From assembly GCA_026394055.1 (NCBI GenBank), contig JAPKYZ010000051.1:16356-80355 (forward strand): a stretch of 64,000 nt of DNA, written 5' to 3'. The stretch is from Acidobacteriota bacterium (GTDB lineage: Bacteria; Acidobacteriota; Terriglobia; Bryobacterales; Bryobacteraceae). Within the stretch, counting starts at the first letter, position 1. Each line of letters starts with the position of its first letter. Under the pieces are notes generated by a model that saw only the letters and a program-made list of their open reading frames with translations, searched no databases and was not told the origin of the DNA. A program made the position numbers and the translations under genes. Positions 5,186-38,534 of this stretch are shown in pieces.

Positions 5186-5277
5186 GACAGAGCGTGGGCC
5201 ACAGCCCACAACGCCCCGAGAGAGGAGCTTGGGCGATAGCCGCTCAAACCCGATTATGGCACGTGATGAACGGACGG

Positions 5278-11827: not shown

Positions 11828-11909
11828 TTTTACGATCTGAGTTTTCGATGAACGTTAAGCGATCGGTGCGGCGCGCCCGGATCTCCCGGGACGCGCCACT
11901 TCCTCCGCG

Positions 11910-12308: not shown

Positions 12309-12499
12309 TGTGTATTCTCCTGAGAGTGATTTCGCTGCTTTTGTCAGGTCCCCCGTATTCAAGAGCACTCAATATTAAGCAACGTTAATATTATGAGTAT
12401 ACTGAACCTTTACGGCAAGGAAAGTTTTGGTTGATCAGCGCAGAGGAAGGCCAGAACCTGATCAACCTTCAGATTCCCGGACCGCGATACCATAAGGTT

Positions 12500-13111: not shown

Positions 13112-13345
13112 CGCGCTACGCGCAGGCTGCGGAAAAGGGTTTTACAGGGACCACTCCCTCACGGTCGTGGCTCTGTAAGTTTTTTGCAACTAATAGACCG
13201 GATCTTCTGAGCCGCGCGCGTCAGCAAGCCAAGATGTTCCTTCGGAACAACAGAAGCGATGAAAAAGCCGCTGCCGACGCCCTACGTGGAATCAAGGGGT
13301 TAGGGGTCATTTTCGAGGGAGCGGTTTCCGGCCTTTTTCCGCAGC

Positions 13346-14062: not shown

Positions 14063-14122
14063 GCGTGCACCCGATTGGACGCCCGGAACGCGGCCGCGGA
14101 GGCAGAATCCGTCATGGCGGCC

Positions 14123-21198: not shown

Positions 21199-21909
21199 AT
21201 GACCGTCATCGCTGGAATTCATTCTGTCCGCGAAGCGCTGAAAAACCGCCGCGAGTTGGAGCGCGTCGTCGTGGCGCGCGGCATGGGCGGCCAAAAGGTC
21301 CAGGAGATCGTCGACCTGGCGCGGGAGGCTCGCGTCCAACTGCGGTTTGAAAGCCGGGAGCAGCTGGACCGTCTGGCGCAAGGCTCCGCCCACCAGGGCG
21401 TGGTGGCCATCGCCGGCGCGTTCCGCTACTGGTCACTCAACGAACTGCCAGAGGACGCCCGGCTGGTGGTGGTGCTCGATGGCGTCGAAGACCCGCACAA
21501 CCTAGGCGCCATCGCTCGAACGGCCGAATGCGCCGGTGCGTCCGCCATCATCATCCCGGAACGCCGCTCCGCCGGAGTCACCGACACCGTCATGAAGGCC
21601 GCGGCCGGTGCCCTGGAGCATCTGCCGGTGGTCCGGGTCGTGAACATCAACCGGGCGCTGGAAGAGTTAAGGGAGCGCAATTTCTGGCGCTACGGCCTGG
21701 ACGAGCGCGGCACCGACACCTACGACACCGTCCAGTTTGCGACCCCCACCGCCATCGTGATGGGCGGCGAGGGCCACGGACTGCACGAACAAGTCAAGAA
21801 ACACTGCGACGTCCTGGTCAGCATCCCCATGGCGGGACACATCCCATCGCTGAATGTCAGCGTGGCGGCGGGGGTGGTGCTGTTTGAATGGAAGCGAAGG
21901 ATACACTAA
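21199..21909 (+). CDS. rlmB: 23S rRNA (guanosine-2'-O)-methyltransferase RlmB (SpoU/TrmH family)
   Basis: SpoU motifs 'LDGVEDPHNLGAIARTAECAGA', 'IVMGGEGHGL', 'SIPMAGHIPSLNVSVAAGVVLFE'. Confidence 0.8.
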   Translation: MTVIAGIHSVREALKNRRELERVVVARGMGGQKVQEIVDLAREARVQLRFESREQLDRLAQGSAHQGVVAIAGAFRYWSLNELPEDARLVVVLDGVEDPHNLGAIARTAECAGASAIIIPERRSAGVTDTVMKAAAGALEHLPVVRVVNINRALEELRERNFWRYGLDERGTDTYDTVQFATPTAIVMGGEGHGLHEQVKKHCDVLVSIPMAGHIPSLNVSVAAGVVLFEWKRRIH

Positions 21910-23539
21910 AGCCGATGGCCAGAAATCTCCTCTTGGATACGAGCACGGTCAATATTGGTTCGGTTTTTGCCAATGGCAACTTGTACCGGGTTCCGGAATT
22001 CCAACGAGACTATTCCTGGCAGGAAGAGAACTGGGAAGATCTTTGGAATGATTTGACTGAAGTGCACGAGTCCGGCAGCACGCACTATTTTGGCGCGATT
22101 GTGCTCCAGTCGACAGCGGCTGACCGGTTCACCGTGATCGATGGACAACAGCGGTTGGCGACCGTCAGTCTGCTTGCGCTTGCGGTACTAGATCGCATTC
22201 GCACATTGGTAGATCGAGGCGTCAATGCGGATGAGAATAAGTTGCGGTATGAACTTCTGTTCAGCCAGTTCATCGGTTCAAGAGATCCGGCGTCGTTGCG
22301 AGCCTCGAGTAAGTTAACGCTCAACAAGACGGACGACGGGTTTTACCAGCACTTTATGGTGCAGTTCCGCCAGCCGATCAATCCGCGCCGGCTCGAGCCA
22401 TCTGAGCGGCGCATGTGGGAGGCGTTCAAGTATTTCCAGCAAAAGCTGGTAGCCCAGTTCGGGGAGCAACCGGATGGGGAGCATCTGGCCGACTTCCTGG
22501 CCACGACAGTTGCACGCCGGCTGATGTTCATTCAGATTCTGGTCGAAGACGAGCTAAGCGCCTACACGGTCTTTGAGACCTTGAATGCCCGTGGTACCGC
22601 GCTTACGGCCTCAGACCTGCTGAAGAACTACCTATTTTCACTGGCCGCGGAGAGCCGCTTGGACCTGGAACACGTCCAACATGAATGGAGACAGATTGCG
22701 GAGCTGGTGCCCGCAACCGATTTGAGCGGCTTCCTTCGGCATTTCCTCAACTCCTCGCAGAGCTATGTCCGGAGCGAGCGTCTTTTTAAGGAGATCAAAG
22801 CCTCGGTCAGCAACCGCCAACAGGTGTTCGCCTTCCTGGAACGGCTGCATAAGGCGGCTGATCTTTACGCCGCCTTGGATGATCCGGAGGATCAGTTCTG
22901 GCTGGACCGTCCGGACGCTGTGCCTCACATTCGCGCGCTGAAGCTTTTTGGGGTGACACAGTATCGCCCTTTGGCGCTGGCATGGAATGAGCGGCATGCG
23001 GCGCAGGATCTCGAGCGCATCCTAAGGATCTGTGAGATCGTTTCTTTCCGATTCAACGTGATTGCCCGGCGCAACACCCAGGAACTCGAGCGGGCTTATA
23101 ACCAAGCGGCGATTGAAGTCTCAGCGGGCCGTGCTACCCGCCCCCGAGATGTCTTCGAACTGCTCAAACCGGTCTACGTCTCCGATGAAGAGTTCAGCCG
23201 ATCTTTCGGCTTCTACCCATTGGGCCTGCGTCCGAAGAAGATCCAGAGCTATACCCTATCTCGTCTGGAAGCCCACCTTCGAGGGGACAAATTTGACGCT
23301 GATTTGATTGGGGCAACCATTGAACACATTCTGCCCGAGAACCCCTCCCAGGAATGGCTAAGAATCGCTTGGCGGGAGGCAAAGGACCGGCCATCAAGCA
23401 AGAGATCTATGCCAGTAGTGCGTTTGAGATGACCAAACGGCTGGACGTTATGGAGTGGAGTGTGGAGGCTATCCACGAACGCGAAGAGCGCATGGCGGAG
23501 TGGGCCGTCGCCGTATGGCGCCTCGATTTCGGCCGGTAG
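21888..23539 (+). pseudogene. GmrSD-like type IV restriction endonuclease (DUF262 + DUF1524), disrupted by frameshift/deletion
   Basis: N-terminal DUF262 motifs ('RVPEFQRDYSWQ', 'IDGQQRL'). C-terminal DUF1524 His-Me finger start 'TIEHILPENPSQEW'. The reading frame then terminates at 23432 after an out-of-family stretch. The remainder of the DUF1524 domain ('...KQEIYASSAFEMTK...EW') continues in the +2 frame (23354..23539). The expected 'GNLTLL' segment between them is missing. Confidence 0.6.
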
Positions 23540-23542
23540 ACA

Positions 23543-24289
23543 TTAATCCAACAGCGCGGAGGTGTGCTTGACCAACCGCTCCAGAGCCGCGGCCGCCGCC
23601 CGAACGCTGGCGGTCTTCTTCGACGTCCCTTCGCCGGTGGCGGCGACGGTCTTGCCAACCCGCACTTCTACGGTAAAGAGCTTTTCGTGGTCTGGCCCGG
23701 TTTCCTGCAGCACTTGATAGCGGGGCAGTGGGAGCTTCAGCGACATGGCGGCTTGCTGGAGGGCGCTCTTGGGGTTGGAGGCGCTGGGGTCTTCGCCGGG
23801 TTCTAGGGCGTCGGCGGAGAGAATGCGTTGGAGGACGAAGCTGCGGGCGGCGTCGATGCCTCCATCCAGAAAGACGGCGGCGATCACGGCTTCCAGGGCG
23901 TCGGCGAGGACGGTCTTTTTCTCGCGGCCACCGGCCCGGTCCTCACCCCGGCCCAGGATTAGATAACCACCCAAGTTTAGAGCGCGGGCGGCGCGGTAGA
24001 GGAACGCGGAATTGACCACGCGCGACTTGATCACCGTCAGCTGGCCTTCCGGTTGATCGGGGTGGCGGCGGAATAGTTCTTCCGCCACCAGAAATCCCAA
24101 AACCGAATCGCCCAGAAACTCCAGCTTCTCGTTGTCCGGCCGGACCGAGATCAGCTCCTGGCCATCCGGCCCCACTGACCGGGTAGGCTCCGACGCCACG
24201 GAGCTATGGGTCAGCGCGCGCCGGAGCAGATCCAGGTCGCGAAAGCGGTAGCCGATCGACGCTTCGAGCGCGCTCAGCTGGTCATCCAT
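23543..24289 (-). CDS. rnc: ribonuclease III
   Basis: RNase III signature 'NEKLEFLGDSVLG', C-terminal dsRBD. Confidence 0.9.
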   Translation of the reverse strand: MDDQLSALEASIGYRFRDLDLLRRALTHSSVASEPTRSVGPDGQELISVRPDNEKLEFLGDSVLGFLVAEELFRRHPDQPEGQLTVIKSRVVNSAFLYRAARALNLGGYLILGRGEDRAGGREKKTVLADALEAVIAAVFLDGGIDAARSFVLQRILSADALEPGEDPSASNPKSALQQAAMSLKLPLPRYQVLQETGPDHEKLFTVEVRVGKTVAATGEGTSKKTASVRAAAAALERLVKHTSALLD

Positions 24290-24318
24290 CGGCTACTCAA
24301 ACACTACTTCTTCGGCCA

Positions 24319-25089
24319 CTACTTCTTCTGCGATTTCAGCTGCGCGGCCTTCAGCTTCTGCTGGGCCGCCACCTGCTTGATCGACGGCGGCAGATCCGGC
24401 ATGGCGTTCAGCTGGTCCACCATCGCAATGGCGTTGTCGGGCTGGCCGGCATCGTTGTAGGTGACCGCCAGGCGAACCATGGTGGAAGGATCCTTCTGGG
24501 GCTGCGCTTCAATGGCCGCCTTCAGTTCCGGAATAGCCACGTCGTACTTCTTGCGGACCATCGCCGACAGACCCAGCACTTCGTGACCCTGGGATTCGAA
24601 ATCCTTCTTCGCCATCGCCCACTGCTCGTCGGTCATGGCGGGGTTGGGCTTGGCCGCGGTCGCCACCAGGGCCAACGCATCCTTGGCCAGCTTTTCCGCC
24701 TTGCCCAGTTTTTCTTCCTTGTCGAAATCGAACTCGCGGGTGCGAGCGGCCAAGGCCTGGCCCATGATCAGCATCGCGCCGTAGCCCTTGGGGTCGGCCT
24801 CAAGAGCGCGTTCTCCGTAAAGAATGATCTTCTCCGTGTCATTTTTCTGCTGCGCCGAGACGGTGGCGACGTAGAGCGCGATGCCCTTGAACTGGGTATC
24901 CGCAAATTTGGTCAACAGCGCTTCAACGGCAGCAATACGGGCATCCGGGTCCTGCGCGCTGAACACGGCGTTGATCGCTTCGGCTTCCTTTTGCGACTTC
25001 GGCTTGGCTTGCTTGGTGTCCGCCGTCTGGGCGAAGGCAGCCGTCATCAGGGTGACGGTCAGAGCCAGAAAAATGGCCAACTTTCTCAT
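24319..25089 (-). CDS. TPR-repeat secreted protein
   Basis: Signal peptide. Tetratricopeptide-like helical repeats. 4-bp overlap with the upstream gene. Confidence 0.5.
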   Translation of the reverse strand: MRKLAIFLALTVTLMTAAFAQTADTKQAKPKSQKEAEAINAVFSAQDPDARIAAVEALLTKFADTQFKGIALYVATVSAQQKNDTEKIILYGERALEADPKGYGAMLIMGQALAARTREFDFDKEEKLGKAEKLAKDALALVATAAKPNPAMTDEQWAMAKKDFESQGHEVLGLSAMVRKKYDVAIPELKAAIEAQPQKDPSTMVRLAVTYNDAGQPDNAIAMVDQLNAMPDLPPSIKQVAAQQKLKAAQLKSQKK

Positions 25090-26552
25090 GGATTCATCCT
25101 CTTCTTCAAATCTTGGGCCGCTTTGGTGGCGGAGTCCCGTGCCGCGCGTGTCGCGCCTTCCACTTTCAACGCATCGTCGAAATGACGGGCGGCTTCCGCG
25201 GGTTCACCACCCAACTCGAGCAGCCGGCCAAGATAAACGTGCGCCCACGCCCGGATCGCTGCCTCGGGTTCCAGGTCCAGCGTCTGTTGAAACAGCTTCA
25301 CCGCCAGTTCCGGGTTCTTTTCGAGCGCCGCAATCCGCGCTAATCCATAATACGCTCTCGACTGCAGCACTCTCTCTTTGGTCTGTTCGGCGGCCTCCAA
25401 GAACTTCGCCCGTGCGTCAGCCAACTTGCGCGCCGCATAGAGATCTTCCGCATCTTCGAGCAGCTTCGGCACACCGGTCAGCTCCGGCTTCTTCTCCGGT
25501 TGCGCCACCTTGACGGTCTTCACCACGGCCTGCGTGGCGAACTGCACGTTGGCGAGCCGCTTGTCTTCCTTCCTCAGATCGATGTTGTTGATCATGTCGG
25601 GATAGTGGAAGCGCATCGCCTGCTCCTGCTTTTCATAGAGCACCAGCGCTTCGGCAAAGTAGGGCGCCAGAATGTAGCCTTCGGCCAGCGCCTGCGCCAC
25701 CATCGCGTCACGCTTAGCGGCCGGTGCCAGGCGAACTTCGACGGCGCGCGTGATGCACTTGGTGGTGAGCAGCAGAAAGTCGTTCTTGTAGGCATCCGGC
25801 AGCAGCGGCGCGGCTTGGGCCAAGTCGATCAGCGGGCGCTTTTTCTCGATCTTGTCGGCATGCAAGGTGGCCAGCGGGTCCACCAGAAAGCCGATGTAGG
25901 AGTGGCGGACTTCTTCGGCGTGCGTGTCTTGAGAAGACGTCAGGATGACGTAGAAATCGTCGCCATAGCTGCGCGCCTGGATGTTGTTGGGCGCGGCCAT
26001 CAGGTCGACGTAGACGAAAAACTTACGCGGACCGGAGCCGGTGCCAGGCACACGCAAATAGCCGGTCGCTTGCTGCAGCGCGTTGGTGATCGGGTCATGG
26101 AAACGTTCCAGCGCCTGCTCATGCATGGGCTTCACCTGTTTCCACAATTCATCCAGCTGCGCCTGCTGGTGGAAGCGCGTCATCAGCGCGCCAAAACCTT
26201 CTAGCGACAACGCATCCGGCGGAATCTCTTCCAGCTTGAAGCGCCACTTGTACTGGTCCGTGCCGTCAACGGCCAGGGCGAAGGAGATGTACTGGCTCAA
26301 GTCGCCGGTCCAGTCCTTTTTCCGATGGGCGGCGAAGAACTTCTTCAGCTCGGCGACCGTGGACAGGTTCTGCTTCGCCACCGCCTCCCGCACCGCTTTG
26401 CGCAACGGGTGGTTGTTGGGCGAATCGGCATCCGCGTCATATCCGGCGGCGTTGATCGCCACCATGACGTTGAAAAGAGTCTGATTAGCGTCCAGTTGGG
26501 CCTGTTGGGCCGCTAAAGGCAGGACGGCGAGTAACGCGAGGGCATACTTCAC
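25086..26552 (-). CDS. hypothetical secreted protein with C-terminal TPR-like region
   Basis: 488-aa ORF with signal peptide MKYALALLAVLPLAAQQ. No confident family assignment. Confidence 0.5.
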   Translation of the reverse strand: MKYALALLAVLPLAAQQAQLDANQTLFNVMVAINAAGYDADADSPNNHPLRKAVREAVAKQNLSTVAELKKFFAAHRKKDWTGDLSQYISFALAVDGTDQYKWRFKLEEIPPDALSLEGFGALMTRFHQQAQLDELWKQVKPMHEQALERFHDPITNALQQATGYLRVPGTGSGPRKFFVYVDLMAAPNNIQARSYGDDFYVILTSSQDTHAEEVRHSYIGFLVDPLATLHADKIEKKRPLIDLAQAAPLLPDAYKNDFLLLTTKCITRAVEVRLAPAAKRDAMVAQALAEGYILAPYFAEALVLYEKQEQAMRFHYPDMINNIDLRKEDKRLANVQFATQAVVKTVKVAQPEKKPELTGVPKLLEDAEDLYAARKLADARAKFLEAAEQTKERVLQSRAYYGLARIAALEKNPELAVKLFQQTLDLEPEAAIRAWAHVYLGRLLELGGEPAEAARHFDDALKVEGATRAARDSATKAAQDLKKRMNP

Positions 26553-26600
26553 TCGCCTACAGTGTATCGAACGCTTTTGCTAGTCTGAAAATTCCCTTCC

Positions 26601-29600
26601 ATGTGGATAGTTAAGCTCGCACTCAACCGGCCCTACAGTTTCGTCGTCATGGCGATCCTGATCGTCGTGCTGGGCGGTGTGGCCATCTTCTCGATGCCCA
26701 CCGACATCTTCCCCAACATCGACATCCCGGTGGCCAGCGTGATCTGGTCCTATAACGGCATGCCGCCCGATGAAATGGCCAAGCGCGTGGTCACCAGTAC
26801 CGAGCGGGCCATGACCACCACGGTGAACGACATTGAACGCATCGAAAGCGAGTCGTTACCGGGCTACGGCATCATCCGCGTCTACTTCCACCCCACCGTG
26901 AAGATCGACCTGGCCATCGCCCAGATCACGGCGATCGCGGCCTCTATTACGCGAATCCTGCCGCCCGGCATCACACCGCCCTTTGTGTTGCGCTACAACG
27001 CCGCCACGGTGCCGATTCTGCAGCTGGCCTTGGGTTCAAACACGCTCAGCGAGCAGCAGATCTTCGACCTGGGCCAAAACTTTCTCCGCACCGGCCTGGC
27101 CACCGTCCAGGGAGCCTCCATTCCCCTGCCCTATGGCGGCCGCAGCCGCACCGTGATGGTGGACCTGGACCCCAAGGCGATGTTCGCCCGCCGCCTGTCG
27201 GCCATTGATGTCTCGAACGCGGTGAATGCCCAAAACCTGATCATCCCGGCCGGTACCATCAAAGCGGGTCCGACGGAGTTCAACGTCAAGCTGAACGCCA
27301 GCCCGGAAACAGTCGCGGAGCTGAACAATCTGCCGGTGAAGGTGGTGAACGGCCAGATGGTCTACATCCGCGACGTCGCCAACGTGCGCGACGGCTACGC
27401 GGTGCAGCAGAACATCGTGCGCCAGGATGGCGTTCGCGGAGCGCTGCTGACGGTACTGAAGAACGGCAGCGAATCGACGCTCGACATCATCAACCGCGTG
27501 CAGCAGCAGATTACGAAGATCCAGACGACGCTGCCGCCGGAGCTGAAGATCAAGCGCCTCTTTGACCAGTCTCTGTTCGTGCGCGCCGCCATCGACAACG
27601 TGCTGCATGAAGGCTTGATCGCCGCGGCATTGACGGCACTGATGATCCTGCTGTTCCTGGGCAGTTGGCGGTCGACCGTGATCGTCTGCATCTCGATCCC
27701 GCTGTCGATCCTGACGTCGCTGTCGATCCTCAACCTGATGGGCATGACCATCAACGTCATGACGCTGGGCGGCCTGGCGCTCGCGGTCGGCATTCTGGTG
27801 GACGACGCGACCGTCGAAATCGAGAACATCCACCGCAACCTGCATGAAGGCAAGCAACTCTGGCGAGCCATCCTCGACGGCGCGCAGCAGATCGCCGTGC
27901 CGACCTTCGTTTCGACGCTTTCGATCTGCATCGTGTTCGTGCCCGTCGTCTTCCTGACCGGCACCGCCAAGTACCTGTTTACGCCGCTGGCGCTGGCGGT
28001 GGTCTTCGCGATGATGGCTTCCTACCTGCTATCCCGCACCATCGTGCCGACGATGGCGAATTTCCTGCTGGGCAAGGATCTTAAGCTCTACCAGGAAGAT
28101 GAATACGGCCCCACCACCAGCCGCAACCCGATGTGGCGGATGCACAAGGCCTTCAACCGTGGCTTCTACCGCGTGCGCTGCACGTATCAGACGATGCTGA
28201 ACTGGTGCCTCTACCATCCGGTGGTGGTGATCCTGGCCTTTACCGTGCTGGTCGCGGGCACCGGCTTCCTGGTGCCGCTGGTGGGTGAGGACTTCTTCCC
28301 CAAGATCGATGGCGGCCAGTTCCGCGTCCACGTCCGCGCCCCGGCGGGCACGCGCATCGAGGAGACGGAGCGCTACTTTGCGTTGGTCGAAAAGAAGATC
28401 CGCGAGGTGGTGCCGAAGGAAGAGCTCGACACCATCATTGACAACATCGGCCTGCCTCCGGTGGGCATCAATCTCGCTTATTCCGATGCCGGGATCATCA
28501 GCAAATCCGATGGCGAAATTCTGGTATCGCTCAACCGCGAGAAGCACGGGCCCACCGAGAACTATGTGCGCCGGCTGCGGCGGGAGTTGCGCAAGGAGTT
28601 TCCGGAGCTGACCGTCTACTTCCAGGCCGCTGACATGACCAGCCAGATCCTCAACTTCGGCCTGCCCGCGCCCATCGACATCCAGATCTCGTCGCGTAAC
28701 GACAAGGCGGCGTATCAGATCGCCAAGCAGATTGAGAAGCGCCTGGATGCGGTGCCGGGTGCGGCCGACGTCCACCTTCACCAAGTGGTGGACGTGCCGG
28801 AAGTGCGCGTCAATGTCGACCGTACGTTGGCCGACCAGATGGGCGTCACCCAGCGCGAAGTGGCTAGCTCACTGCTGATCTCGCTGAGCTCCAGCACGCA
28901 GACCGCCCCCAACTATTGGCTCGACCCGCGCAACGGTGTCAGCTATCAGGTGAACGCCCAAACGCCGCCCATCCGCATGGATTCGTTGGACGACCTCACA
29001 TCCACCCCGGTGACCTCCGCCAACGGCACCAGCACCCAACTGCTGCAAAGCATGGCGACGCTGGAGCGTGGCACCTCGATGGCCGTGGTCAGCCACTACA
29101 ACGTCCAGCCGGTCTATGACGTCTACGCGGGCGTTGAGGATCGTGACCTGGGTGGCGTGGCACGCGATGCCCGGGCCATCATTGCCGACATCCAGGCCAA
29201 GGCCCCCAAGGGCCTCACCATTGAGATGCGCGGACAGGTAGCGACGATGGATGCATCCTTTACGCGCCTGGGCCTGGGCATGATCTTTTCGATCCTGCTG
29301 GTCTACCTGCTGATGGTGGTGAACTTCCAAAGCTGGCTGGACCCCTTCATCATTCTGATGGCGCTGCCCGCCGCCTTGGCCGGGATCGTCTGGATCCTGT
29401 TTGCCACGCAGACCACCTTTAGCGTGCCCAGCCTGATGGGAGCCATCATGTCGATCGGCGTCGCGACGGCGAACTCGATTCTGCTGGTGACCTTTGCCAA
29501 TGACCGCCGCCAGTTTGTGGCGGACCAGCGGCAGGCCGCGCTGGAAGCTGGAGTGACCCGCCTGCGCCCTGTGATCATGACCGCACTGGCGATGATGATC

Positions 29601-29801
29601 GGCATGCTGCCGATGTCGCTGGGTGTGGGTGAAGGCGGCGAGCAGAACGCCCCGCTGGGCCGCGCCGTGATCGGTGGCCTGCTGTTCGCCACCGTAGCCA
29701 CCCTGTTTTTGGTGCCGGTGGTGTACCGGCTGTTGCGTCGGCAGCCGCCGCGTTGGACTGATGTTGTGCCGGAGCAAGTTACATTGGAGCCGCAACCGTG
29801 A
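26601..29801 (+). CDS. RND efflux transporter permease (AcrB/CzcA HAE family)
   Basis: 1066 aa, 12-TM RND architecture. Conserved N-terminal 'NRPYSFVVMAILIVVLGGVAIFSMPTDIFP'. Confidence 0.9.
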   Translation: MWIVKLALNRPYSFVVMAILIVVLGGVAIFSMPTDIFPNIDIPVASVIWSYNGMPPDEMAKRVVTSTERAMTTTVNDIERIESESLPGYGIIRVYFHPTVKIDLAIAQITAIAASITRILPPGITPPFVLRYNAATVPILQLALGSNTLSEQQIFDLGQNFLRTGLATVQGASIPLPYGGRSRTVMVDLDPKAMFARRLSAIDVSNAVNAQNLIIPAGTIKAGPTEFNVKLNASPETVAELNNLPVKVVNGQMVYIRDVANVRDGYAVQQNIVRQDGVRGALLTVLKNGSESTLDIINRVQQQITKIQTTLPPELKIKRLFDQSLFVRAAIDNVLHEGLIAAALTALMILLFLGSWRSTVIVCISIPLSILTSLSILNLMGMTINVMTLGGLALAVGILVDDATVEIENIHRNLHEGKQLWRAILDGAQQIAVPTFVSTLSICIVFVPVVFLTGTAKYLFTPLALAVVFAMMASYLLSRTIVPTMANFLLGKDLKLYQEDEYGPTTSRNPMWRMHKAFNRGFYRVRCTYQTMLNWCLYHPVVVILAFTVLVAGTGFLVPLVGEDFFPKIDGGQFRVHVRAPAGTRIEETERYFALVEKKIREVVPKEELDTIIDNIGLPPVGINLAYSDAGIISKSDGEILVSLNREKHGPTENYVRRLRRELRKEFPELTVYFQAADMTSQILNFGLPAPIDIQISSRNDKAAYQIAKQIEKRLDAVPGAADVHLHQVVDVPEVRVNVDRTLADQMGVTQREVASSLLISLSSSTQTAPNYWLDPRNGVSYQVNAQTPPIRMDSLDDLTSTPVTSANGTSTQLLQSMATLERGTSMAVVSHYNVQPVYDVYAGVEDRDLGGVARDARAIIADIQAKAPKGLTIEMRGQVATMDASFTRLGLGMIFSILLVYLLMVVNFQSWLDPFIILMALPAALAGIVWILFATQTTFSVPSLMGAIMSIGVATANSILLVTFANDRRQFVADQRQAALEAGVTRLRPVIMTALAMMIGMLPMSLGVGEGGEQNAPLGRAVIGGLLFATVATLFLVPVVYRLLRRQPPRWTDVVPEQVTLEPQP

Positions 29802-31066
29802 GTGAGAACCCAAGCGTGAACGAGAGAAAACCCGAAGTCCGTCCGCCCTTGTTTTCGGGCAAACTGCTCGCCCTCGTAACCCTGATCGCCATCGTCTTCG
29901 CCGGACTGTTGTTCAGTGGCCTCTGGCCCCGGCGGGAGCGGGTGGCGGCCATCACCAAGGAAGCCTCGGACGACGCCTCAGAAGTGCCGACGGTGACGGT
30001 GGCGAAGGCGTCGGTCGCGCCGCCCACCAAAGAGATCGTGCTGCCAGGGACCGTGTCAGCCCTGCTCGAAACGCCCATCTACGCCCGCGCGGAAGGCTAT
30101 CTCCGGTCGCTCAAAGCGGACATTGGCGACGTCGTGAAGAAAGACCAGATTCTGGTGGAGCTCGACACGCCGGAACTCGACCAATCGCTGCGTATCGCCC
30201 GTGCGCGCTTGCAGCAACTGAAGGCTTCGGTGGACCAAGCCAAAGCCGCTGAGCAGAAGTCCCGCGCCGATGTGAAGCTGGCCGACATCAACCGCCAGCG
30301 CATCACCCAACTGGTGAAAGAAGGCGTCTTCGCGCGGCAGCAGGGTGACGATGTGCAAGCCCAGGTGGAGGTCCGGACCGCGGAACTGCAATCCGCCCTG
30401 GCGGCCATCAATGTCGCCGAGCAGAACATCAAAGCGCAAGAGGCCGAGATCGGCCGCCTGGAAGAACTCTCTTCGTTTAAGCATGTCCGCGCACCCTATG
30501 ACGGCATCATCACGGTGCGCAACTGCGCCACCGGCAACCTGATCACGCCCAGCTCCGCCAACGGCGGCCGCGAGCTGTTCCGCATCTCGAACTTTGATGT
30601 CCTCCGCGTGTTCGCCGCTGTGCCGCAATCGGTGATCTCGAGCATCCTGCCGGGCCAGCCCGCTGAGGTCTTCACAGCGGACATGAACGGCCGCAAGTTC
30701 CTGGGCAAGGTGCAGCGGGCCGCGAACTCGCTCGATGACCAGACGCGCACCCAGCGCACCGAAGTCCGGGTGCTCAATCCGGACCACGGCCTGCTGCCGG
30801 GCATGTATGTGCAGGTGAAGTTCATCACGCCCAAAGGCCGGTCCATGGTGATGATCCCCGGCGATACGCTGCTGACGCCCGCTGGTGGCACGATGGTGGC
30901 CGTGGTCGATGCCGGCAAGGTCCGCATGCAAAAGGTGGATGTCGGCCGCGATTTGGGCACTCAGGTGGAAGTGATGGCCGGCTTGCAGGGCGATGAGATG
31001 CTGATCATCAACCCCTCGGACGCCGTGCGCCCGGGCGCTCGCGTGCGGGCTGTGCCGCGTAAGTAG
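29798..31066 (+). CDS. RND efflux periplasmic adaptor (membrane fusion protein, HlyD family)
   Basis: N-terminal TM. Coiled-coil hairpin. Lipoyl/beta-barrel motifs ('HVRAPYDGIITVRN'). 4-bp overlap with the permease. Confidence 0.8.
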   Translation: MSENPSVNERKPEVRPPLFSGKLLALVTLIAIVFAGLLFSGLWPRRERVAAITKEASDDASEVPTVTVAKASVAPPTKEIVLPGTVSALLETPIYARAEGYLRSLKADIGDVVKKDQILVELDTPELDQSLRIARARLQQLKASVDQAKAAEQKSRADVKLADINRQRITQLVKEGVFARQQGDDVQAQVEVRTAELQSALAAINVAEQNIKAQEAEIGRLEELSSFKHVRAPYDGIITVRNCATGNLITPSSANGGRELFRISNFDVLRVFAAVPQSVISSILPGQPAEVFTADMNGRKFLGKVQRAANSLDDQTRTQRTEVRVLNPDHGLLPGMYVQVKFITPKGRSMVMIPGDTLLTPAGGTMVAVVDAGKVRMQKVDVGRDLGTQVEVMAGLQGDEMLIINPSDAVRPGARVRAVPRK

Positions 31067-31100
31067 CCCCTCGCATTCGGGGTAGCGCGCGAGTACACTC

Positions 31101-32900
31101 TTGGGTGTGGCCTCCTTTCTGCTGGTCTTGGCGGCGGGCACGCTCGCCTTTTTCTTCCTCCTCATCTTCCTGTTCGGACTGGTGATCATCCGGGAAAACC
31201 AAGTGGGAGTGGTAATTAAACGCTTCTCCTGGAGCGGCAAGAAGCTTCCCGAAGGCCGGGTAATCGCGCTTGAAGAAGAGCCGGGCTATCAGGCCCGCAC
31301 GCTGGGCCCGGGCTTTCATCTTTGGTACTTCCCGGTGATGTACAAGATCGAGAAGTACCCGATCACCGTCATCGCGCCCGGCAAGATCGGCCTGGTGATC
31401 GCCAACGACGGCAATCCCCCGCCCGTCAACCGCGTCCTGTGCGAAGCGGTGGAGTGCGACAACTTCCAGAACGCCGAAAAGTTCTTGCGCCACGGGGGAC
31501 AAAAAGGCCGCCAGAGCGCGGTGTTGACCGCCGGCTACTACCGCATCAACCCGGTGCTGTTCAAAGTGGTTCCGGATGTCCCCATCACCAAGATTGATTC
31601 GAACAAGATCGGCATCATCACCGTGCTGGACGGTGCGCCGATGCCGGTGGGACAGATGGCCGCCCAAGTGATCGCGGGTGGTGAGAGCTTCCAGAACCCC
31701 GATGCCTTCATCCGCAACGGCGGCTGCCGCGGCCTGCAGGAGCAGATCATGCTGGCCGGCAGCTACAACATCAACCCCTGGTTTTCCGAGATCGAAGAGG
31801 CCGACCTGGTGGAAGTGCCGATCGGCTATGTCGGCGTCGTGGTGAGCTTTGTCGGCGAAGACTTCAAGGACATCTCGGGCGAACAGTTCACGCACGGCAA
31901 CATCGTCCGCAAGGGCGGCAAAGGCGTCTGGGATGAACCGCTCTACCCCGGCAAGCACGCGCTGAACACCCGGATCATGAAAGTGGAGCTCGTGCCCACC
32001 ACCAACATCGTCCTCAACTGGGCTTCCACGCGCACCGAGTCACACAAGCTGGACGAGAAGCTGTCGACAATCTCCGTGCGCTCGAAAGACGGCTTCACCT
32101 TCAACCTGGACGTCTCCCAGATCATCAACATCGGTGCCACCAAGGCACCTTGGGTGATCTCCCGCGTGGGCAGCGTGCGCAATCTGGTGAACCAGGTGCT
32201 GGAGCCGATCATCGGCAACTATTTCCGCAACGGTGCCCAGAACTACACCGTGCTCGACTTCCTATCGAACCGCAGCGAGCGGCAGACCGAGGCCCGCACC
32301 CACATCACCGATGCCATCCGTGAATACGACGTCCAGAGCGTCGACACGCTGATCGGTGACATCGTGCCGCCGGAGCAGTTGATGCTGACGCTCACCACGC
32401 GCAAGATCGCCGAGGAGCAGCAAAAGACGTTCCAGACCGAAGAGCAGACCCAGCGCACGCGCCAGGAACTGGAGCGGCAGAAAGCGCTGGCGGACAAACA
32501 GAAAGAGATCGTCAACTCCGAACAAGACGTCCGCATCGCCGAAATGCGCGCCAAGTCCGCCGTCGAGCAAGCCCAGGGCGAATCGTTGGTGACGTCCCGG
32601 CGGGCCGAAGGCGAAGCCATCGCCAAACGCCGCGTCGGTGAGGCGGAGGCCGAAGTGGTCTCGATCAAGGGCCGCAACGAAGCCGAAGCGATCCGGGCGA
32701 TCGGGCAAGCCAAGGCCGATGCCTACAAGCTAGGCGTGGAAGCAATGGGCGGCAACTTCTCCCTGCTCCAGATCTTCACCATCCTGGCCGAAAAAGGCAT
32801 CCGGCTCACTCCCGACGTCATGGTCTCCGGCGGCAGCAACGGAGGCAATGCCTCCGAGGCGATGCTGGCCATGTTGTTGCGTGAGGCGATGAAGAAGTAG
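31101..32900 (+). CDS. SPFH/band-7 (flotillin-like) membrane protein
   Basis: N-terminal TM. SPFH domain. Long Glu/Ala/Gln-rich coiled coil ('EAEAEVVSIKGRNEAEAIRAIGQAKADA'). Confidence 0.75.
   Translation: MGVASFLLVLAAGTLAFFFLLIFLFGLVIIRENQVGVVIKRFSWSGKKLPEGRVIALEEEPGYQARTLGPGFHLWYFPVMYKIEKYPITVIAPGKIGLVIANDGNPPPVNRVLCEAVECDNFQNAEKFLRHGGQKGRQSAVLTAGYYRINPVLFKVVPDVPITKIDSNKIGIITVLDGAPMPVGQMAAQVIAGGESFQNPDAFIRNGGCRGLQEQIMLAGSYNINPWFSEIEEADLVEVPIGYVGVVVSFVGEDFKDISGEQFTHGNIVRKGGKGVWDEPLYPGKHALNTRIMKVELVPTTNIVLNWASTRTESHKLDEKLSTISVRSKDGFTFNLDVSQIINIGATKAPWVISRVGSVRNLVNQVLEPIIGNYFRNGAQNYTVLDFLSNRSERQTEARTHITDAIREYDVQSVDTLIGDIVPPEQLMLTLTTRKIAEEQQKTFQTEEQTQRTRQELERQKALADKQKEIVNSEQDVRIAEMRAKSAVEQAQGESLVTSRRAEGEAIAKRRVGEAEAEVVSIKGRNEAEAIRAIGQAKADAYKLGVEAMGGNFSLLQIFTILAEKGIRLTPDVMVSGGSNGGNASEAMLAMLLREAMKK
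32877..32900 (+). repeat. 24-bp direct repeat copy 1 (3' end of flotillin gene, 'ttgcgtgaggcgatgaagaagtag')
   Basis: Identical to 34023..34046 on direct reading of the sequence. Confidence 0.9.
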
Positions 32901-32920
32901 GGCCTTGCTATGCTCGATCC

Positions 32921-33196
32921 ATGGCCTCTCACGACCAGCGGTCAAGCGGGCAGACCAACCCGGGTTCACTATCTTTGACGCCTGAGCCGGCTGTCGTTGC
33001 GACTGCGCCGGAACTGGTTGACCTCTACCGGACCGCTTTTCGGCTTTACGGGACTTCCGCCCTCTGGAATCGGCGTGAGTTTACCGACCCCGCTCCGCAA
33101 GATGTCCTGGCCATCACCCAAGCGCTCAGGACGCACGGCGGGATGGACGGCCGGCGGCTAGCTGAAAAGATTGAACGCATCTGCCGTGCCACTTAG
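32921..33196 (+). CDS. hypothetical small protein, putative partner of the downstream nucleotidyltransferase
   Basis: 91-aa ORF overlapping the next gene by 26 bp. No recognisable family. Start uncertain. Confidence 0.35.
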   Translation: MASHDQRSSGQTNPGSLSLTPEPAVVATAPELVDLYRTAFRLYGTSALWNRREFTDPAPQDVLAITQALRTHGGMDGRRLAEKIERICRAT

Positions 33197-34001
33197 TCAG
33201 TTTCAGTCGCGAGTGCTGGGGATATTGGCGGCGGGCCGGACGCCGGAAAGCTTCATCGCCGGCGGTATCGCCATCAACCGTGAGGGACCGCGCTATTCGC
33301 GGGCTATCGATATCTTCCAGGATTCCGAGGAGGTCTTGGCGGCGGCAGCGGAAGCTGACCAGCGCCTGCTGACAGATGCCGGAATGCGCGTCAACTGGCG
33401 AAGCAACCGCACGGGCCACCGGTCGGCGATCGTTTCAGCGGATACAGACTCGATGCGCCTCGAGTGGGTGCATGATAGCGCCTTCCGATTCTTTCCCGCC
33501 CAGCCTGATGCGCAGTTCGGCTATGTGCTCCACCCTGTCGATTTGGCGGCCAACAAGGTCTCGGCAGCGGCCGACCGGCGTGAGGCTCGGGACATTGTTG
33601 ACCTAGTGACCATTCACGAAAACATCCTGCCTCTTGGGGCGGCGATCTGCGCCGCGGTTGGCCGGTTTCCTGGTCAATCGCCCGAGGAGATGTTGGCCGA
33701 GATCCGCCGCCACGCGCGCCTGTCGGCCGAAGAGATCGAGAGCCTGGCCATGGATGGCCCCCTGGACGTGAAGGCCTTCACGGCGCGGGTCCGCGCGATG
33801 CTCGACCACGCGGATGTGTTCATCCGTCATCTACCGAGCGAAGCGGTTGGGGTGGTCTTCTTAAGGGCCGGGAGGTGGGAGCAACCGGATCTCGACCGGC
33901 TGGACGAGTATGATCGCCGCCCCGGAAGCCGGGGTGGTATCTGGCCTTCATCGAGCGAAATCAACCGCGCCATGCTCGGCCGGTATTCCAGCGAACCCTA
34001 A
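33171..34001 (+). CDS. nucleotidyltransferase, AbiEii/DUF1814-like (putative type IV TA / abortive-infection toxin)
   Basis: Pol-beta-type NTase motif 'FIAGGIAINREGPRYSRAIDIF' (GG...RxSxDID), as in AbiEii-family proteins. About 276 aa. Confidence 0.5.
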   Translation: MNASAVPLSQFQSRVLGILAAGRTPESFIAGGIAINREGPRYSRAIDIFQDSEEVLAAAAEADQRLLTDAGMRVNWRSNRTGHRSAIVSADTDSMRLEWVHDSAFRFFPAQPDAQFGYVLHPVDLAANKVSAAADRREARDIVDLVTIHENILPLGAAICAAVGRFPGQSPEEMLAEIRRHARLSAEEIESLAMDGPLDVKAFTARVRAMLDHADVFIRHLPSEAVGVVFLRAGRWEQPDLDRLDEYDRRPGSRGGIWPSSSEINRAMLGRYSSEP

Positions 34002-34022
34002 GCGGCAACGCCTGAGGGCGAT

Positions 34023-34046
34023 TTGCGTGAGGCGATGAAGAAGTAG
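34023..34046 (+). repeat. 24-bp direct repeat copy 2
   Basis: Perfect copy of 32877..32900, including an in-frame 'REAMKK*' remnant and a TAG stop. Confidence 0.9.
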
Positions 34047-34076
34047 ACCACTGGTTCGAGTTACCATCATCCCCAT

Positions 34077-36689
34077 ATGCGGCTGATGCTTGGATTAGCG
34101 TTGCTGCTGCCCGCGATGGCGCAGCAGACGATGGATGCGGACTTTGCGAAGTCGGTGAAAGAGTTCACCACCAAACCGGAATTTATGAGTCCGCTGGTGG
34201 ACCATCTGCCCAAGGTCCCCGGCATTCCGACACCCAAAGACTTTCTGGGCTATCACGTCGGCACGCCGAAGAAGCTGACGCGCTATGCGGACATTGTGAA
34301 GTACCTCCGGGCGCTCGAAAAAGCGTCGAAGCGCATCAAGGTGTTTAGCGCCGGGCAGACCGACGAAGGCCGCGAGATGATTGCCGGCATGGTGGGTGAT
34401 GAGGCCACTATCGCGAGTCTTGAAACCTACCGCGGCTATCTGGCCCAACTGGCGGACCCGCGCAAGACCACCGACGCGGCGGCCGTCATCGCCAAAGCCA
34501 AGCCGATCTATCAGCTGACCGGCGGCCTCCACGCCAGCGAAACGGGCTCGCCCGAAATGCTGATGGAGCTGGCCTATCGCCTGGTGGCGGAAGAAGGCGC
34601 GCTCTACAGCCAGATCCGGCAGAACCTGATTGTGTCCATCGTCCCGGCGCTCGAACCCGATGGGCAGGAGCGTTACACCGACTGGTATTACCGCCACAAG
34701 ATCAACGACACCTCCGAAGATGACGCCCTGCCCGGACCACCCTATTGGGGCAAGTACGTCCTGCACGACAACAACCGCGACATGCACTATTCGCAGATCG
34801 TGATGCGCAACTGGCTGAAGTTCTACTTGCAGTGGAAAGCGCCCATCGTGCATGACCTGCATGAAAGCGTGCCGGTCCTCTACACCTTCTCCGGCCAGCC
34901 GCCGCACAACCCCAACCTGGACCCGATCCTCTACGCTGAGCTCCCCTGGTTCGCCAACTATGAGATGACCAAGATGATCGGCTACGGCATGCCCGGCGTC
35001 TGGACACACGCTTTTGTCGACATGTGGAGCGTGGGCTATCTGGGCTTTATGGCCTCCAACCACAACGGCATGCTCCGCATGTATGAGACCTACGGCAACG
35101 GCGGCGCCAACACCATGAAGCGCAAAGTCCAGTCGAGCGAGAATGACCGCTTCGGCGCGGCCAACCGCCAGTGGTACCGCCCCTTCCCGGCCTACAAGGA
35201 CGTTGAATGGTCCCTGCGCAACAACACGAATTACATGCAGACCGGCGTGCTGTCGGCGCTGGAACTGGCTTCGGCCAACTCGAAGACGATCCTCGACAAC
35301 TTCTACCGCAAGTCCTTCAACGCCGTCGAAGCCGGTAAGAAGGAAGCGCCCTATGGCTGGAGCATCCCGGCCGGACAGCGCGACCAGACGCGCGTCGCAC
35401 TGTTGATCAACACACTGCGCCTGCAAGGCATTGAGGTCAGCACCAAGGCCGACGGCACCTTCCTCATCCGCCGCGATCAGCCCTATGGACGCCTGGCGAA
35501 GAGCCTGCTCGAAAAGCAGGTCTACCCGGACCCCAGCCTCCGCACCTACGACGACACCGGCTGGACCATGGGCACACAGTTCCAGGTGGACGTGAAGGAA
35601 GTGAACGAGAAGGGCCAACTGGACGTGCCGACGCAGCCCGTCAACACCTACGACCCGCGCGGCTCCGTCACGGGCCAGGGGCAGCATCTGGTGGTGCTGC
35701 ACAATGGCGCGCATTCGATGATCACGCTGCGCGCGCGGTTGAAGTCCGCCAAGTTTGAAGCGCTCGAAAAGACGTGGGGCGACCTGCCCGCGGGCAGCCT
35801 CATCACGGCCAACACGGCGGCGGCGCGCGAACAGGTCGAGAAGTTAGGCTTGGTGGCGAAGGTGATGCCGGAGCTGCCAGACGTGCCGCGCCATGCGGTC
35901 GACCTGCCGCGGCTGGCTGTTTATTCCACCTGGGGCTCAACGCAGGAAGTGGGTTGGGTGCGCCATGCGCTCGACAGCTTTGAAGTGCCCTACGACCTGA
36001 TTTTCAAGGAGCGCGTGAAGAAGGGCAATCTGCGCGGCGACTACGACGTCGTGCTGATCCCCAACCAACGCGGCGGCTCGGCGAAAGGCATCGTGTTCGA
36101 CATCGATTGCAAGGGCCGCTCCATGGCCTACACCAAGACGGCCGACTTCAAGAGCCTGGGCATGTACGGCGAAACCGAAGAGATGTGCGGCGGCATGGGC
36201 CTGGAAGGCGTGGTCGAATTCGAGAAGTTCGTCACCGGCGGCGGCGTCATGATCACGCTCGCTGGAGCCAGCACGCTGCCCGCTGAGTTCGGCCTCGTGC
36301 GCCGTGTCGAAGCCAGTCGTCCGGTGGGGACTTTCTACGCCCCGGGTCCGATTCTCGATGCCGAAATCGAAAAGCCTTCGCACCCCATGTTCTACGGCTA
36401 CACGGCCAAAACGGTGGCCATCCGCTACGCCAACGGGCCGCTGCTCTACGCCTCCGAGCAGGATCGCCAAAAGTGGTCCCTGCTGAAGTACCCCTTCACC
36501 GAAAAGGGAATCCTCAGCGGCCACATCCAAGGCATTGGTCAATTGAAAGACCACCCCGCCGTAATGGACGTCCCTTCCGGTAAGGGCCGGGTGGTCATGT
36601 TCGCCACGAACCCCTGCTATCGCTGGCAGACCCATAGTGAGTTCGCGATGCTGTTCAACTCACTGCTACATTTTGATGATGTGAAGTAG
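34077..36689 (+). CDS. M14-family zinc carboxypeptidase-like secreted protein
   Basis: 870 aa. Signal peptide. M14-like zinc-binding region '[21 protein letters not shown]'. Confidence 0.65.
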
Positions 36690-36693
36690 GATT

Positions 36694-37926
36694 ATGGAAC
36701 GGAAAAAGAAGGTTGGCCCACCCCGCATTGAGACGCTACGCGTCAAAAACTATCGCTCATTAAAGGACATCGAATTCAGGGACCTCACGCCCTTCACTGT
36801 GCTGCTTGGCCCGAATGGCAGTGGGAAGTCGACGACTTTCGATGTGTTGAATTTTCTGTCCGAGTGCTTTCGCTTCGGGCTTCGTCATGCCTGGGATCGC
36901 CGGGGACGCTCTAGAGAGTTAAAGACGAGAGGTCAATCTGGCCCGATTCTCATCGAACTTAAGTACCGCGAGCGCCCGGAAGCACCAATCATCACATACC
37001 ACCTAGCGATTGATGAGGGCGAACGGGGCGGACCAGTAGTCGCCGAAGAATGGCTGCAATGGCGGCGAGGCAGTAAGGGGCAACCATTCCGGTTCTTGGA
37101 TTATCGCGCCGGCAAAGGACGAGCCGTCAGCGGTGAGATGCCCGATGACCAGGATCAACGGGACGACGTACCGCTGAAGTCAGCGGACTTGATCGCGGTC
37201 AACGCCCTCGGCCAGTTTGAGAATCATCCGCGCGTTGCTGCTTTGAGAGAATTCATCACCGATTGGTACGTATCGTATCTATCGATAGAAGATACACGCG
37301 GGCAGCCCGAGGCGGGTCCACAGGACCGCCTGAGCAAGAGCGGCGATAACCTCGCAAACGTAATTCAGTACCTTAGGGAACGCTATCCGAAAGAGTTGGA
37401 GGCTATTTTTGAGATCCTCCGACGCCGTATCCCGAGGCTCGAAAGCGTTATTGCAGTACCTACTGACGATGGACGGCTGCTGTTGCAGATCAAGGACGCT
37501 CCCTTTGATCGGCCGATCCTCTCTCGTTTTGCATCTGACGGGACGTTGAAAATGTTGGCCTACCTAGTTGTTTTGCATGATCCTGAACCACCGCAATTCG
37601 TTGGGATCGAGGAACCGGAGAACTTTCTTCATCCGCGACTCCTACCGGGGCTGAGCGAAGAATGTAGGAGCGCGACCGAGCATTCACAATTATTGGTCAC
37701 GACACATTCACCATTTTTCTTGAATAGCGCCAAGCCTAACGAGGTTCGAATTCTCTATCGAAACGAACATGGTTTCACCGAAACGAGACGCGCGGACGAG
37801 GTTCCGGGTATCACTCAGTTTGTGGATGCGGGAGCCACTATGGGCCACCTTTGGCTGGAAGGCAGATTGGGAGCCGGGGATCCGCTGGTGAACTCGGGGG
37901 TTCCGTTGGAGGGACGCCGCCGATGA
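36694..37926 (+). CDS. ABC-type (AAA_21/OLD-like) ATPase, putative anti-phage AbiLi-like component
   Basis: Walker A 'GPNGSGKST'. Walker B/D-loop '[13 protein letters not shown]'. H-loop '[10 protein letters not shown]'. N-terminal '[12 protein letters not shown]' typical of OLD/Gabija-class ABC ATPases. Confidence 0.75.
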
Positions 37927-38534
37927 AGGCCAGCCATCTGCATGTCATTGTTGAGGACCAGTCCACGGAAGCCGCGCTCCGTGTATTGCTGCCCAAGATT
38001 CTTCGACAAGACCTTACGTTTGAGATATTTCCGCACCAATGTAAGCAAGATCTGTTGAAACATCTCCCGAACCGCTTTCGGGGCTACAAGCAATGGCTGC
38101 CGGACGACTGGCGGATTATTGTGCTCTGCGATCTTGACAATGACGACTGCAAACAACTCAAGGATCGGCTCGAATCGTTTGCCATGCAGGCGAGGTTAAT
38201 GACCAAGCGATCTAGCAGTCGCGGGAGCTATCAAGTTGTCACGCGGCTTGCTATCGAAGAATTGGAAGCCTGGTTTTTTGGCGATTGGAATGCGGTTTGT
38301 GCCGCATACCCCAAAGTGGATCCCAACCTTGGAGCAAAACAGGGTTACCGCGATTCCGATTCCATTGCCGGCGGTACTTGGGAAGCGCTTGAGAGAGCGC
38401 TAAAGAATGGAGGATACTTCCGAACGGGACTTAGAAAGATCGAAGCCGCGCGGGCCATCTCTGACCAAATGGATCCATTGCGCAATAAGTCCCAGAGCTT
38501 CGATGCCTTTCGGAAGGCCGTCGGGGATCTATAG
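37923..38534 (+). CDS. DUF4276-like Toprim-domain protein (putative nuclease partner of the ATPase)
   Basis: ATGA overlap with the ATPase stop. Toprim catalytic Glu '[10 protein letters not shown]' and DxD motif '[12 protein letters not shown]'. Confidence 0.65.

Follow-up and report, generated by a model that had tools for sequence, protein, structure and literature searches.

Insertion of a small toxin-antitoxin-like nucleotidyltransferase cassette, with probable long target duplication, at the 3' end of a flotillin-like gene in Bryobacteraceae

A 64,000-nt stretch of an Acidobacteriota genome of the family Bryobacteraceae (assembly GCA_026394055.1, contig JAPKYZ010000051.1, positions 16,356 to 80,355), hereafter the window, was analysed for a two-gene cassette located between a flotillin-like gene and a gene for an M14 zinc carboxypeptidase. 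The cassette encodes a small protein, presumed to be an antitoxin, and a predicted nucleotidyltransferase (NTase) of the DUF1814/AbiEii-MenT type. It is flanked by direct repeats of the flotillin 3' end. It is nearly certain that about 1103 nt of foreign DNA were inserted right after the flotillin stop codon, with duplication of the target, in an ancestor of the lineage. The event probably belongs to the class 'insertion with long target duplication', which was named for restriction-modification (RM) gene complexes (Nobusato et al. 2000, Gene 259:99; Furuta, Abe & Kobayashi 2010, PMC2853133). The complete reading, consisting of the insertion, its class, joining by host illegitimate recombination and retention by addiction, was given a probability of about 0.6. 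New in comparison with the RM systems is the cargo class, toxin-antitoxin (TA) modules, together with the recurrence of the footprint among related cassettes and in another TA family.

The repeat TTGCGTGAGGCGATGAAGAAGTAG, a 24-mer, was present in the window in exactly two copies, at 32877-32900 and 34023-34046, both on the plus strand and spaced 1146 nt apart. This agrees with a preliminary description of the DNA, which had reported perfect 24-bp direct repeats of the flotillin 3' end. No further match was found in the window with up to three mismatches, and none of 100 dinucleotide shuffles matched. The concern that the 24-mer might be a common genomic repeat was thus not borne out within the 64 kb. 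The first copy comprises the last seven codons and the stop codon of the flotillin-like gene, and this reading frame remained intact despite the insertion.

Relatives of the flotillin placed the window in the Bryobacteraceae, Acidobacteriota, and three orthologous loci were available for comparison. L001, from a metagenome-assembled genome of Lac Pavin with DNA 89-94% identical to the window, is a clean empty site. Its flotillin stop codon is followed by the leader of the M14 gene, and its sole 24-mer is located at position 9644. L001 348-9668 aligned to window 23580-32901 and L001 9643-11196 to window 34022-35575. L078, a contig of 6.06 Mb that is 95% identical to the window, carried the cassette and two perfect 24-mers. 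L067, a contig of ERZ1079238 that is 89% identical, also carried the cassette, with one private substitution in each repeat copy and an ungapped repeat of 38 nt at 84%. The alignment with a related flotillin-M14 junction therefore gave what the preliminary description had expected, a single 24-mer without cassette, and relatives with the same genes but no repeats were not found, as L078 and L067 both carry them. The repeat sequence is unique, with two copies in the window and one in L001, and it was seen in three independent assemblies (window, L078 and L067), which argues against an assembly artefact. The parts of the locus are as follows.

31101-32900, plus strand: SPFH/Band_7 (flotillin-like) target gene, 599 aa; open reading frame (ORF) with PF01145 at 7.8e-24 and orthologues in L001, L067 and L078
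32844-32900, plus strand: left target copy of about 57 nt, coding and functional, which ends in the perfect repeat (24 nt, 32877-32900)
32901-32974, plus strand: leader at the 5' end of the insert, about 74 nt with TTG 32975 taken as the start of the partner gene; missing from the empty site L001
32975-33196, plus strand: gene of the small partner, 73 aa when read from TTG or, as a possible alternative, 91 aa from ATG 32921
33186-34001, plus strand: DUF1814/AbiEii-MenT-type NTase, 271 aa from GTG; PF08843; Ala codon at 33303-33305
34004-34022, plus strand: decayed 5' part of the right target copy; begins 2 nt past the NTase stop, about 14 nt missing
34023-34046, plus strand: right perfect 24-mer, non-coding here and contiguous with the M14 upstream region
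34077-36689, plus strand: M14 zinc carboxypeptidase, 870 aa, downstream neighbour; directly follows the flotillin gene in the empty-site genome

The duplication was probably longer than its perfect part. In the window, L078 and L067, a spacer of 21-27 nt separates the right 24-mer from the NTase stop. It was collinear with the flotillin segment GGCAAYGC..GGCGATGC, which lies upstream of the left 24-mer. The right copy was short of 9-14 nt relative to this segment, and the match was better than that of random segments in each of the three genomes (p 0.001-0.02 per genome). This gapped collinear alignment replaced an earlier in-register comparison upstream of the 24-mer (19/45, p 0.024). The original duplication was therefore estimated at about 57 nt, with the left copy at 32844-32900 and the foreign DNA, about 1103 nt, at 32901-34003. 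The 24-mer would accordingly be the preserved end of a flotillin 3' duplication, and the remainder of the right copy would have decayed. A 9-mer, GAGGCGATG, occurs twice in the flotillin 3' end (32857-32865 and 32882-32890) and leaves the alignment of the decayed right copy ambiguous by a few bases. The C-terminus of the NTase is 3-8 aa shorter than in its homologues, consistent with a right breakpoint at the NTase stop codon. The claim of an insertion at the flotillin stop with target duplication is upheld by the empty site L001, and the duplicated unit has to be extended from the 24-mer to about 57 nt.

The uneven preservation of the right copy has a likely cause. The right 24-mer and the 30 nt up to the M14 ATG showed one change in 54 nt between the window and L067, where about 11 were expected at the synonymous rate. 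Judged by this conservation, the right 24-mer probably belongs to the region that controls M14. The first approximately 33 nt of the right copy are neither coding nor conserved, and the spacer differs strongly between the lineages. It appears to be under no constraint, which would account for its decay. No Rfam match at E<=1, no sigma-70 promoter consensus and no intrinsic terminator consensus were found between 32600 and 34300.

The age of the insertion was estimated from the synonymous divergence (dS) between the window and L067. A dS of 0.25 for the cassette equalled that of the adjacent M14 gene (0.256), indicating a single old insertion that was inherited vertically. The suggestion that the flotillin end serves as a recurrent integration site was accordingly given up, because this one old insertion was the only one seen. 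With L002 as outgroup, the three topologies for window plus L078, L067 and L001 were supported by 156, 153 and 136 informative sites, which amounts to a trichotomy. L002 is a more distant member of the Bryobacteraceae with a flotillin 84% identical. It carries a gene for a 1108-aa outer-membrane-receptor-like protein between flotillin and M14 (11819-15145), and no repeats were found around this gene. The flotillin-M14 junction is thus variable beyond the cassette.

The larger gene of the cassette matched PF08843 (AbiEii) with 27.5 bits at a gathering score of 22.5. The mechanical ORF has 276 aa (33171-34001), and the public annotation starts at GTG 33186 and gives 271 aa (MCX6592173.1). The NTase sequence and its profile gave no match among solved structures, including any solved MenT or AbiEii chain. 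A structure predicted with moderate confidence (pLDDT 67) had its best Foldseek matches to 4ok0, the DUF1814 NTase of Helicobacter (E 5.7e-6), and to 6y56, MenT4 of M. tuberculosis (E 2.4e-5, TM 0.53). There were 1902 homologues, the nearest outside the flotillin locus being just 66% identical. Ratios of nonsynonymous to synonymous divergence (dN/dS) of 0.10-0.16 indicated purifying selection. MenT toxins add nucleotides to tRNA acceptor ends and thereby block translation (PMC7450476, PMC10435456).

The window copy deviates at the active site. Its motif reads GG..(x12)..A-I-D-I, in contrast to the D-I-D-I that L078 and L067 share with at least 90% of 27 homologues. In the window, Ala (GCT, 33303-33305) takes the place of the first Asp of the pol-beta Dh[DE]h motif, for which L078 has GAC and L067 has GAT, so that the intact pattern hG[GS]x9-13Dh[DE]h was found in the sister lineages but not in the window. 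The assignment as a pol-beta NTase was sustained by the PF08843 score, although the motif RYSRAIDIF, quoted in its favour, holds the Ala at the first Asp position. In MenT3, the exchange D80A in the pol-beta motif abolishes toxicity (PMC7450476). By analogy, the window toxin may be catalytically dead, and the Asp-to-Ala change is possibly the first step of a decay of the cassette.

The small partner gene lies upstream of the NTase gene and overlaps it, and this arrangement was kept in 56 of 62 homologous cassettes. The core LYRxAF..ALWN..ALAITxALRTHGGMxGRRLAExIE..C was under purifying selection (dN/dS 0.26-0.28), and the homologues have 69-77 aa. The mechanical ORF comprises 91 aa (32921-33196), of which the 18 codons between ATG 32921 and TTG 32975 showed a dN/dS of about 1.0. 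The homologue lengths and the unconstrained extension make the start at TTG 32975 (73 aa) more probable. Both ORFs of the preliminary description, 91 and 276 aa, are present, with TTG 32975 as the likelier start of the smaller and GTG 33186 as the annotated start of the larger. Read as coding sequence, the leader 32901-32974 also gave a dN/dS of about 1, and it presumably holds the promoter and operator of the cassette. The partner had no match in Pfam, NCBIfam, PADLOC or PDB, just weak hints of HTH_32 (E 0.019). Its position and conservation suggest an antitoxin of no described family.

Similarities to the MenAT and AbiE systems are the PF08843 toxin, a predicted fold nearest to MenT4 and the Helicobacter DUF1814 NTase, and a partner gene upstream that overlaps the toxin start. 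MenA1 is likewise encoded by an ORF upstream of MenT1 and neutralises MenT1 (PMC7450476, PMC10435456). The partner differs in being neither a winged helix-turn-helix protein of the AbiEi type nor a MenA protein. Further differences are the lack of a sequence-level match of the NTase to solved MenT or AbiEii chains and the Ala in place of the first pol-beta Asp in the window. TA function is here a prediction from sequence.

The cassette family was followed into other genomes. From metagenomes, 80 further loci with NTase homologues were collected and the upstream flank of each was aligned with its downstream flank; 62 loci were usable. A local score of at least 40 was taken as a long flanking direct repeat, and for control, windows with identical geometry were shifted to other positions of these loci. 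Flanking repeats were detected in 15 of the 62 loci, representing 6 of 35 cassette clusters and at least eight target contexts including L142. Among the control windows, 3 of 259 had repeats, all in one locus (Fisher p ~1e-4 to 1e-5). In the other contexts, at least seven, the repeats measured 68-270 nt with traces to ~800 nt. They consisted of sequence of neighbouring genes, namely the 3' end, the 5' end or the interior, as listed here for the individual loci.

L111: 127 nt from the 3' end of a response-regulator gene located upstream
L073, L074, L079, L080 and L081: 113 nt, 3' end of convergent hypF
L083: about 200 nt from the 3' end of a gene on the minus strand
L127/L129: 180-220 nt from within an ABC ATPase gene, with traces to ~800 nt
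L112/L113/L123/L149: 120-180 nt, queA 5' region
L094: 74 nt
L142: 68 nt

In an all-against-all comparison, the repeats of eight contexts had no sequence in common, and the 24-mer was found at no other cassette. Cassette lineages that are 81-88% identical occupied different targets; their homology begins just 18-66 nt upstream of the small gene and ceases 0-6 nt past the NTase stop. The first gene lies 20-110 nt from the start of the inserts, whose 3' end is often within 0-60 nt of the toxin stop. The repeats enclose just 1.1-1.7 kb, with 0 to ~390 nt of non-coding DNA between cassette and repeat, which leaves no room for a recombinase. Partial second copies of AbiE-like cassettes were observed in L122/L126 (3882-4145 versus 5292-5836) and in L132 (4709-5059 versus 7251-7601). 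They are 84-351 nt long, 88-96% identical and situated 1.4-2.5 kb from the intact cassette. An ORF for a MNT-like nucleotidyltransferase lies between the cassette copies of L132. Amplification or nested insertion could have left the partial copies behind.

The locus upstream of queA offered a second empty site and a second TA family. In L112 (1456-3800; Ga0210410_10005047), two unrelated TA cassettes stand in tandem before queA, interspersed with the queA 5' region, which is present three times. The array runs from a b c' through the AbiE-like cassette, a b, and RelB with YafQ to b c, which leads into queA; b is a segment of ~90 nt just upstream of the queA start and including it. Toxins of the YafQ family are mRNA interferases. 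In the alignment, L123 and L149 carried the AbiE-like cassette with a single b and no RelB-YafQ. They therefore constitute the empty site of the second insertion, for which a target duplication of ~90 nt results, and they represent the intermediate state of the L112 array. It is thereby proven that RelB-YafQ, which belongs to an unrelated TA family, arrived in a second independent event whose target overlaps that of the first insertion. The array as such suggests a hot spot that was hit serially by insertions with target duplication.

These features correspond to those of insertion with long target duplication. The preliminary description had called the mechanism unexplained; the class had in fact already been named, and the mechanism of the class is unsettled (PMC2853133). 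Its traits are the absence of mobility genes, an empty site in a relative, and long, variable duplications of unique target sequence, sometimes over the 3' end of a gene, and it is known from type I-IV RM systems of several phyla (PMC2853133). Furuta et al. suggested a property common to RM systems, e.g. double-strand breakage, as the cause and proposed a life cycle of insertion, amplification via the repeats and release (PMC2853133). A review of 2013 ascribed the mode to RM systems only (PMC3874152). No report of this signature for TA modules was found in the open literature, subscription papers being outside the search. The cassettes described here share with the RM complexes a small, presumably addictive module without mobility gene (~1.1 kb with two genes, well within the <20 kb of the class), an empty site, and repeats of unique target sequence that sometimes extend over the 3' end of the neighbour. 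Repeat lengths are 45 to ~420 bp for RM systems and ~57 to >200 nt for the TA cassettes. The cargo is different, a DUF1814 NTase with a small partner and, in L112, also RelB-YafQ. DNA breakage by a restriction enzyme cannot apply to these TA toxins, and in the window only 24 nt are still perfect. The hosts are uncultured Acidobacteriota of lakes, peat and soil, and serial insertions occurred at one target (queA).

For the joining step, a recombinase-independent, illegitimate process with offset joints is proposed tentatively, its chances being put a little short of even. A DNA fragment or single strand with the module would be joined to the chromosome by host illegitimate recombination, either by end joining or by microhomology-primed template switching. 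Given joints staggered by tens to hundreds of bases, the intervening DNA would end up on both sides. Such inserts would normally be lost by recombination between the repeats. Inserts with an addiction module would resist this loss, as deletion would kill the cell. Insertions at gene borders would be tolerated when the duplication keeps both the coding end of the upstream gene and the control region of the downstream gene, and the flotillin-M14 site would fit this pattern. Addiction and tolerated positions together would explain the observed cargo and the observed positions.

Among the rival explanations, site-specific recombination is closest to the preliminary description, which had considered an att-like site. 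The 24-mer or 57-mer would then be the identity segment of attB and attP, and the cassette would be a tiny element mobilised in trans by an integrase, or else what remains of a larger integrative element after the loss of all but its addiction module, similar to a cis-mobilisable element (CIME). Direct repeats with a gene 3' end that restore the reading frame are typical of integrases and of the islands and CIMEs in gene or tRNA 3' ends, a segment of 57 nt is within the usual range (PMC2853133), and a clean empty site exists. Nevertheless, this explanation is improbable. In agreement with the preliminary description, no integrase was found in the insert, within +/-10 kb of the orthologous loci or among 20 further ORFs scanned in the window, and the same holds for transposases in the latter two sets. 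Target sequence resumes 2 nt past the toxin stop and ends at most 74 nt before the first gene, so that neither arm sites nor residual DNA of an element could be accommodated. The sequence of the 24-mer shows no dyad symmetry, and the 24-mer was in no pair of the inverted-repeat list. An att-like site is opposed most directly by the related cassettes, which are flanked by unrelated and mostly much longer duplications of adjacent sequence, of very different lengths and in some cases inside genes, with no common core between insertions and the 24-mer at none of them. Two other kinds of element were rejected. An integron attC, an imperfect palindrome of 57-141 nt, does not fit into the 2 nt between NTase stop and target sequence, and no inverted repeat was present at the cassette end. 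Integron TA cassettes are similar in their size of ~1 kb, in having almost no non-coding DNA and in forming TA arrays separated by repeats, as in L112; they differ in that the repeats here are copies of the local target (queA 5' region, flotillin 3' end) rather than element-borne, and no intI was nearby. For a transposon, insertion sequence or miniature inverted-repeat transposable element, no inverted repeat pairing the cassette ends was found, and the duplications vary from 24-57 nt to >200 nt.

Integration of the Campbell type deserves somewhat more credit, yet it too is unlikely. Here a circle of the cassette and one repeat, excised in a relative, would have entered the flotillin 3' end by a single RecA crossover, which could be a secondary route of spread. 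Homology, insert and homology are the exact product of such a crossover, the trichotomy with its locally conflicting signal is compatible with recombination among the lineages, and a cycle of release and re-invasion has been proposed for repeat-flanked RM units (Furuta et al., PMC2853133). The equal synonymous divergence of cassette and flank between the window and L067 points instead to vertical descent from one event. Moreover, 57 nt are a poor substrate for RecA, and the first event would be left unexplained, since a prior illegitimate insertion is needed. Retro-insertion would involve a cDNA of the operon and target-primed synthesis at staggered nicks, as in processed copies mediated by long interspersed nuclear elements (LINEs). 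The variable duplication lengths and the insert limits near the first gene and the toxin stop would suit it. It is nonetheless highly improbable, as no reverse transcriptase was among the window ORFs examined, no poly-A-like or other 3' signature was present and duplications of hundreds of bases are atypical; a LINE-like process is not known in bacteria. That the repeat is due to chance, to a common genomic repeat or to faulty assembly has a negligible probability. The doubled GAGGCGATG makes the flotillin 3' end mildly repetitive, but the shuffles gave no match, only two copies exist in 64 kb, three assemblies are alike, the copies diverge independently in L067 and the empty site has a single copy.

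Several observations weigh against an illegitimate insertion with long target duplication that is retained by addiction. About 80% of the cassette contexts had no detectable repeats; these may have decayed, or the cassettes may have arrived in another way. Three other islets of the window, a GmrSD gene, a HEC-01 ATPase pair and a PIN pair, also lacked flanking repeats. Perfect identity at the flotillin locus extends over just 24 nt, below the 30-bp threshold of Furuta et al., and the longer extent is reconstructed. In many cases the insert 3' end lies 0-60 nt from the toxin stop, tidier than random fragment capture predicts. L001 could represent a precise secondary loss instead of the ancestral state, its status being ambiguous because of the trichotomy. 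After TAG, the insert of L078 and L067 and the target of L001 both read GCC, so that microhomology is uninformative here, and no junction was young enough for microhomology to be read. Finally, addiction is a property that we infer, and the window toxin is without the catalytic Asp.

A GmrSD-type restriction gene (DUF262, PF03235) at 21888-23540, with a low GC content at third codon positions (GC3) of 0.66, lies between genes for a SpoU-type methyltransferase and RNase III. It is missing from L001 and L067, replaces the last codons of the methyltransferase gene and is maybe frameshifted near its 3' end; no flanking repeats were found. Past the M14 gene, 4 nt after its stop, an AAA_21 ATPase of the HEC-01A type (410 aa) and an overlapping gene of 227 aa occupy 36694-38534 (GC3 0.58-0.59), again with no flanking repeats. 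At the same position, L078 and L067 carry a gene of 295 aa and a GNAT acetyltransferase gene, L078 in addition a HicB-like gene. The 3' side of M14 is therefore also a variable islet. The third islet, on the minus strand at 4437-5209 between an amidase gene and a gene of 453 aa, consists of a PIN-domain gene (139 aa) and an upstream partner of 118 aa, is VapBC-like with a lowered GC3 of 0.63-0.70 and has no flanking direct repeat.

Two repeat-bounded islets were seen outside the window. In L073 566-1877 (L080 709-2020), a pair of a FitA-like ribbon-helix-helix gene and a PIN gene (879-1531) is flanked by a repeat of 132 nt at 81% (641-772/1546-1677). A further repeat, 72 nt long at 96% (566-637/1806-1877), takes in the 3' terminus of the GNAT gene upstream, and the repeat order is permuted on the right. 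L023 1859-4527, on a Bacteroidota contig fetched for its flotillin, has a direct repeat of 494 nt at 97% around an ORF of 346 aa, forming another small islet.

It has long been a puzzle how small chromosomal TA and other defence modules settle between housekeeping genes where no mobile element is visible. Just one recombinase-free mode has been named so far, and it was tied to RM systems and, tentatively, to their cutting of DNA. The present evidence consists of several independent genomes, two empty-site controls and one serial array. As the same signature accompanies toxins that do not cut DNA, a tRNA-type NTase and the YafQ family, it is argued that the shared property is not DNA cleavage. 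The likely common cause shifts to a general host joining pathway combined with selection by addiction. A small module, a unique flanking duplication and an empty site together form a concrete footprint that can be searched for. The flotillin locus itself records one old insertion that left both neighbours intact and is now probably decaying. A bolder interpretation is that TA modules, like RM modules, may be recombinase-free mobile units, which are inserted with long, variable target duplications by a host pathway, form circles through the repeats, re-enter by homology and build arrays as at queA in L112, the cycle being sustained by addiction. This interpretation is regarded as doubtful. If it were true, the common factor would be post-segregational killing and not restriction cleavage, and a sizeable share of the 'orphan' chromosomal TA loci would have come about in this way.

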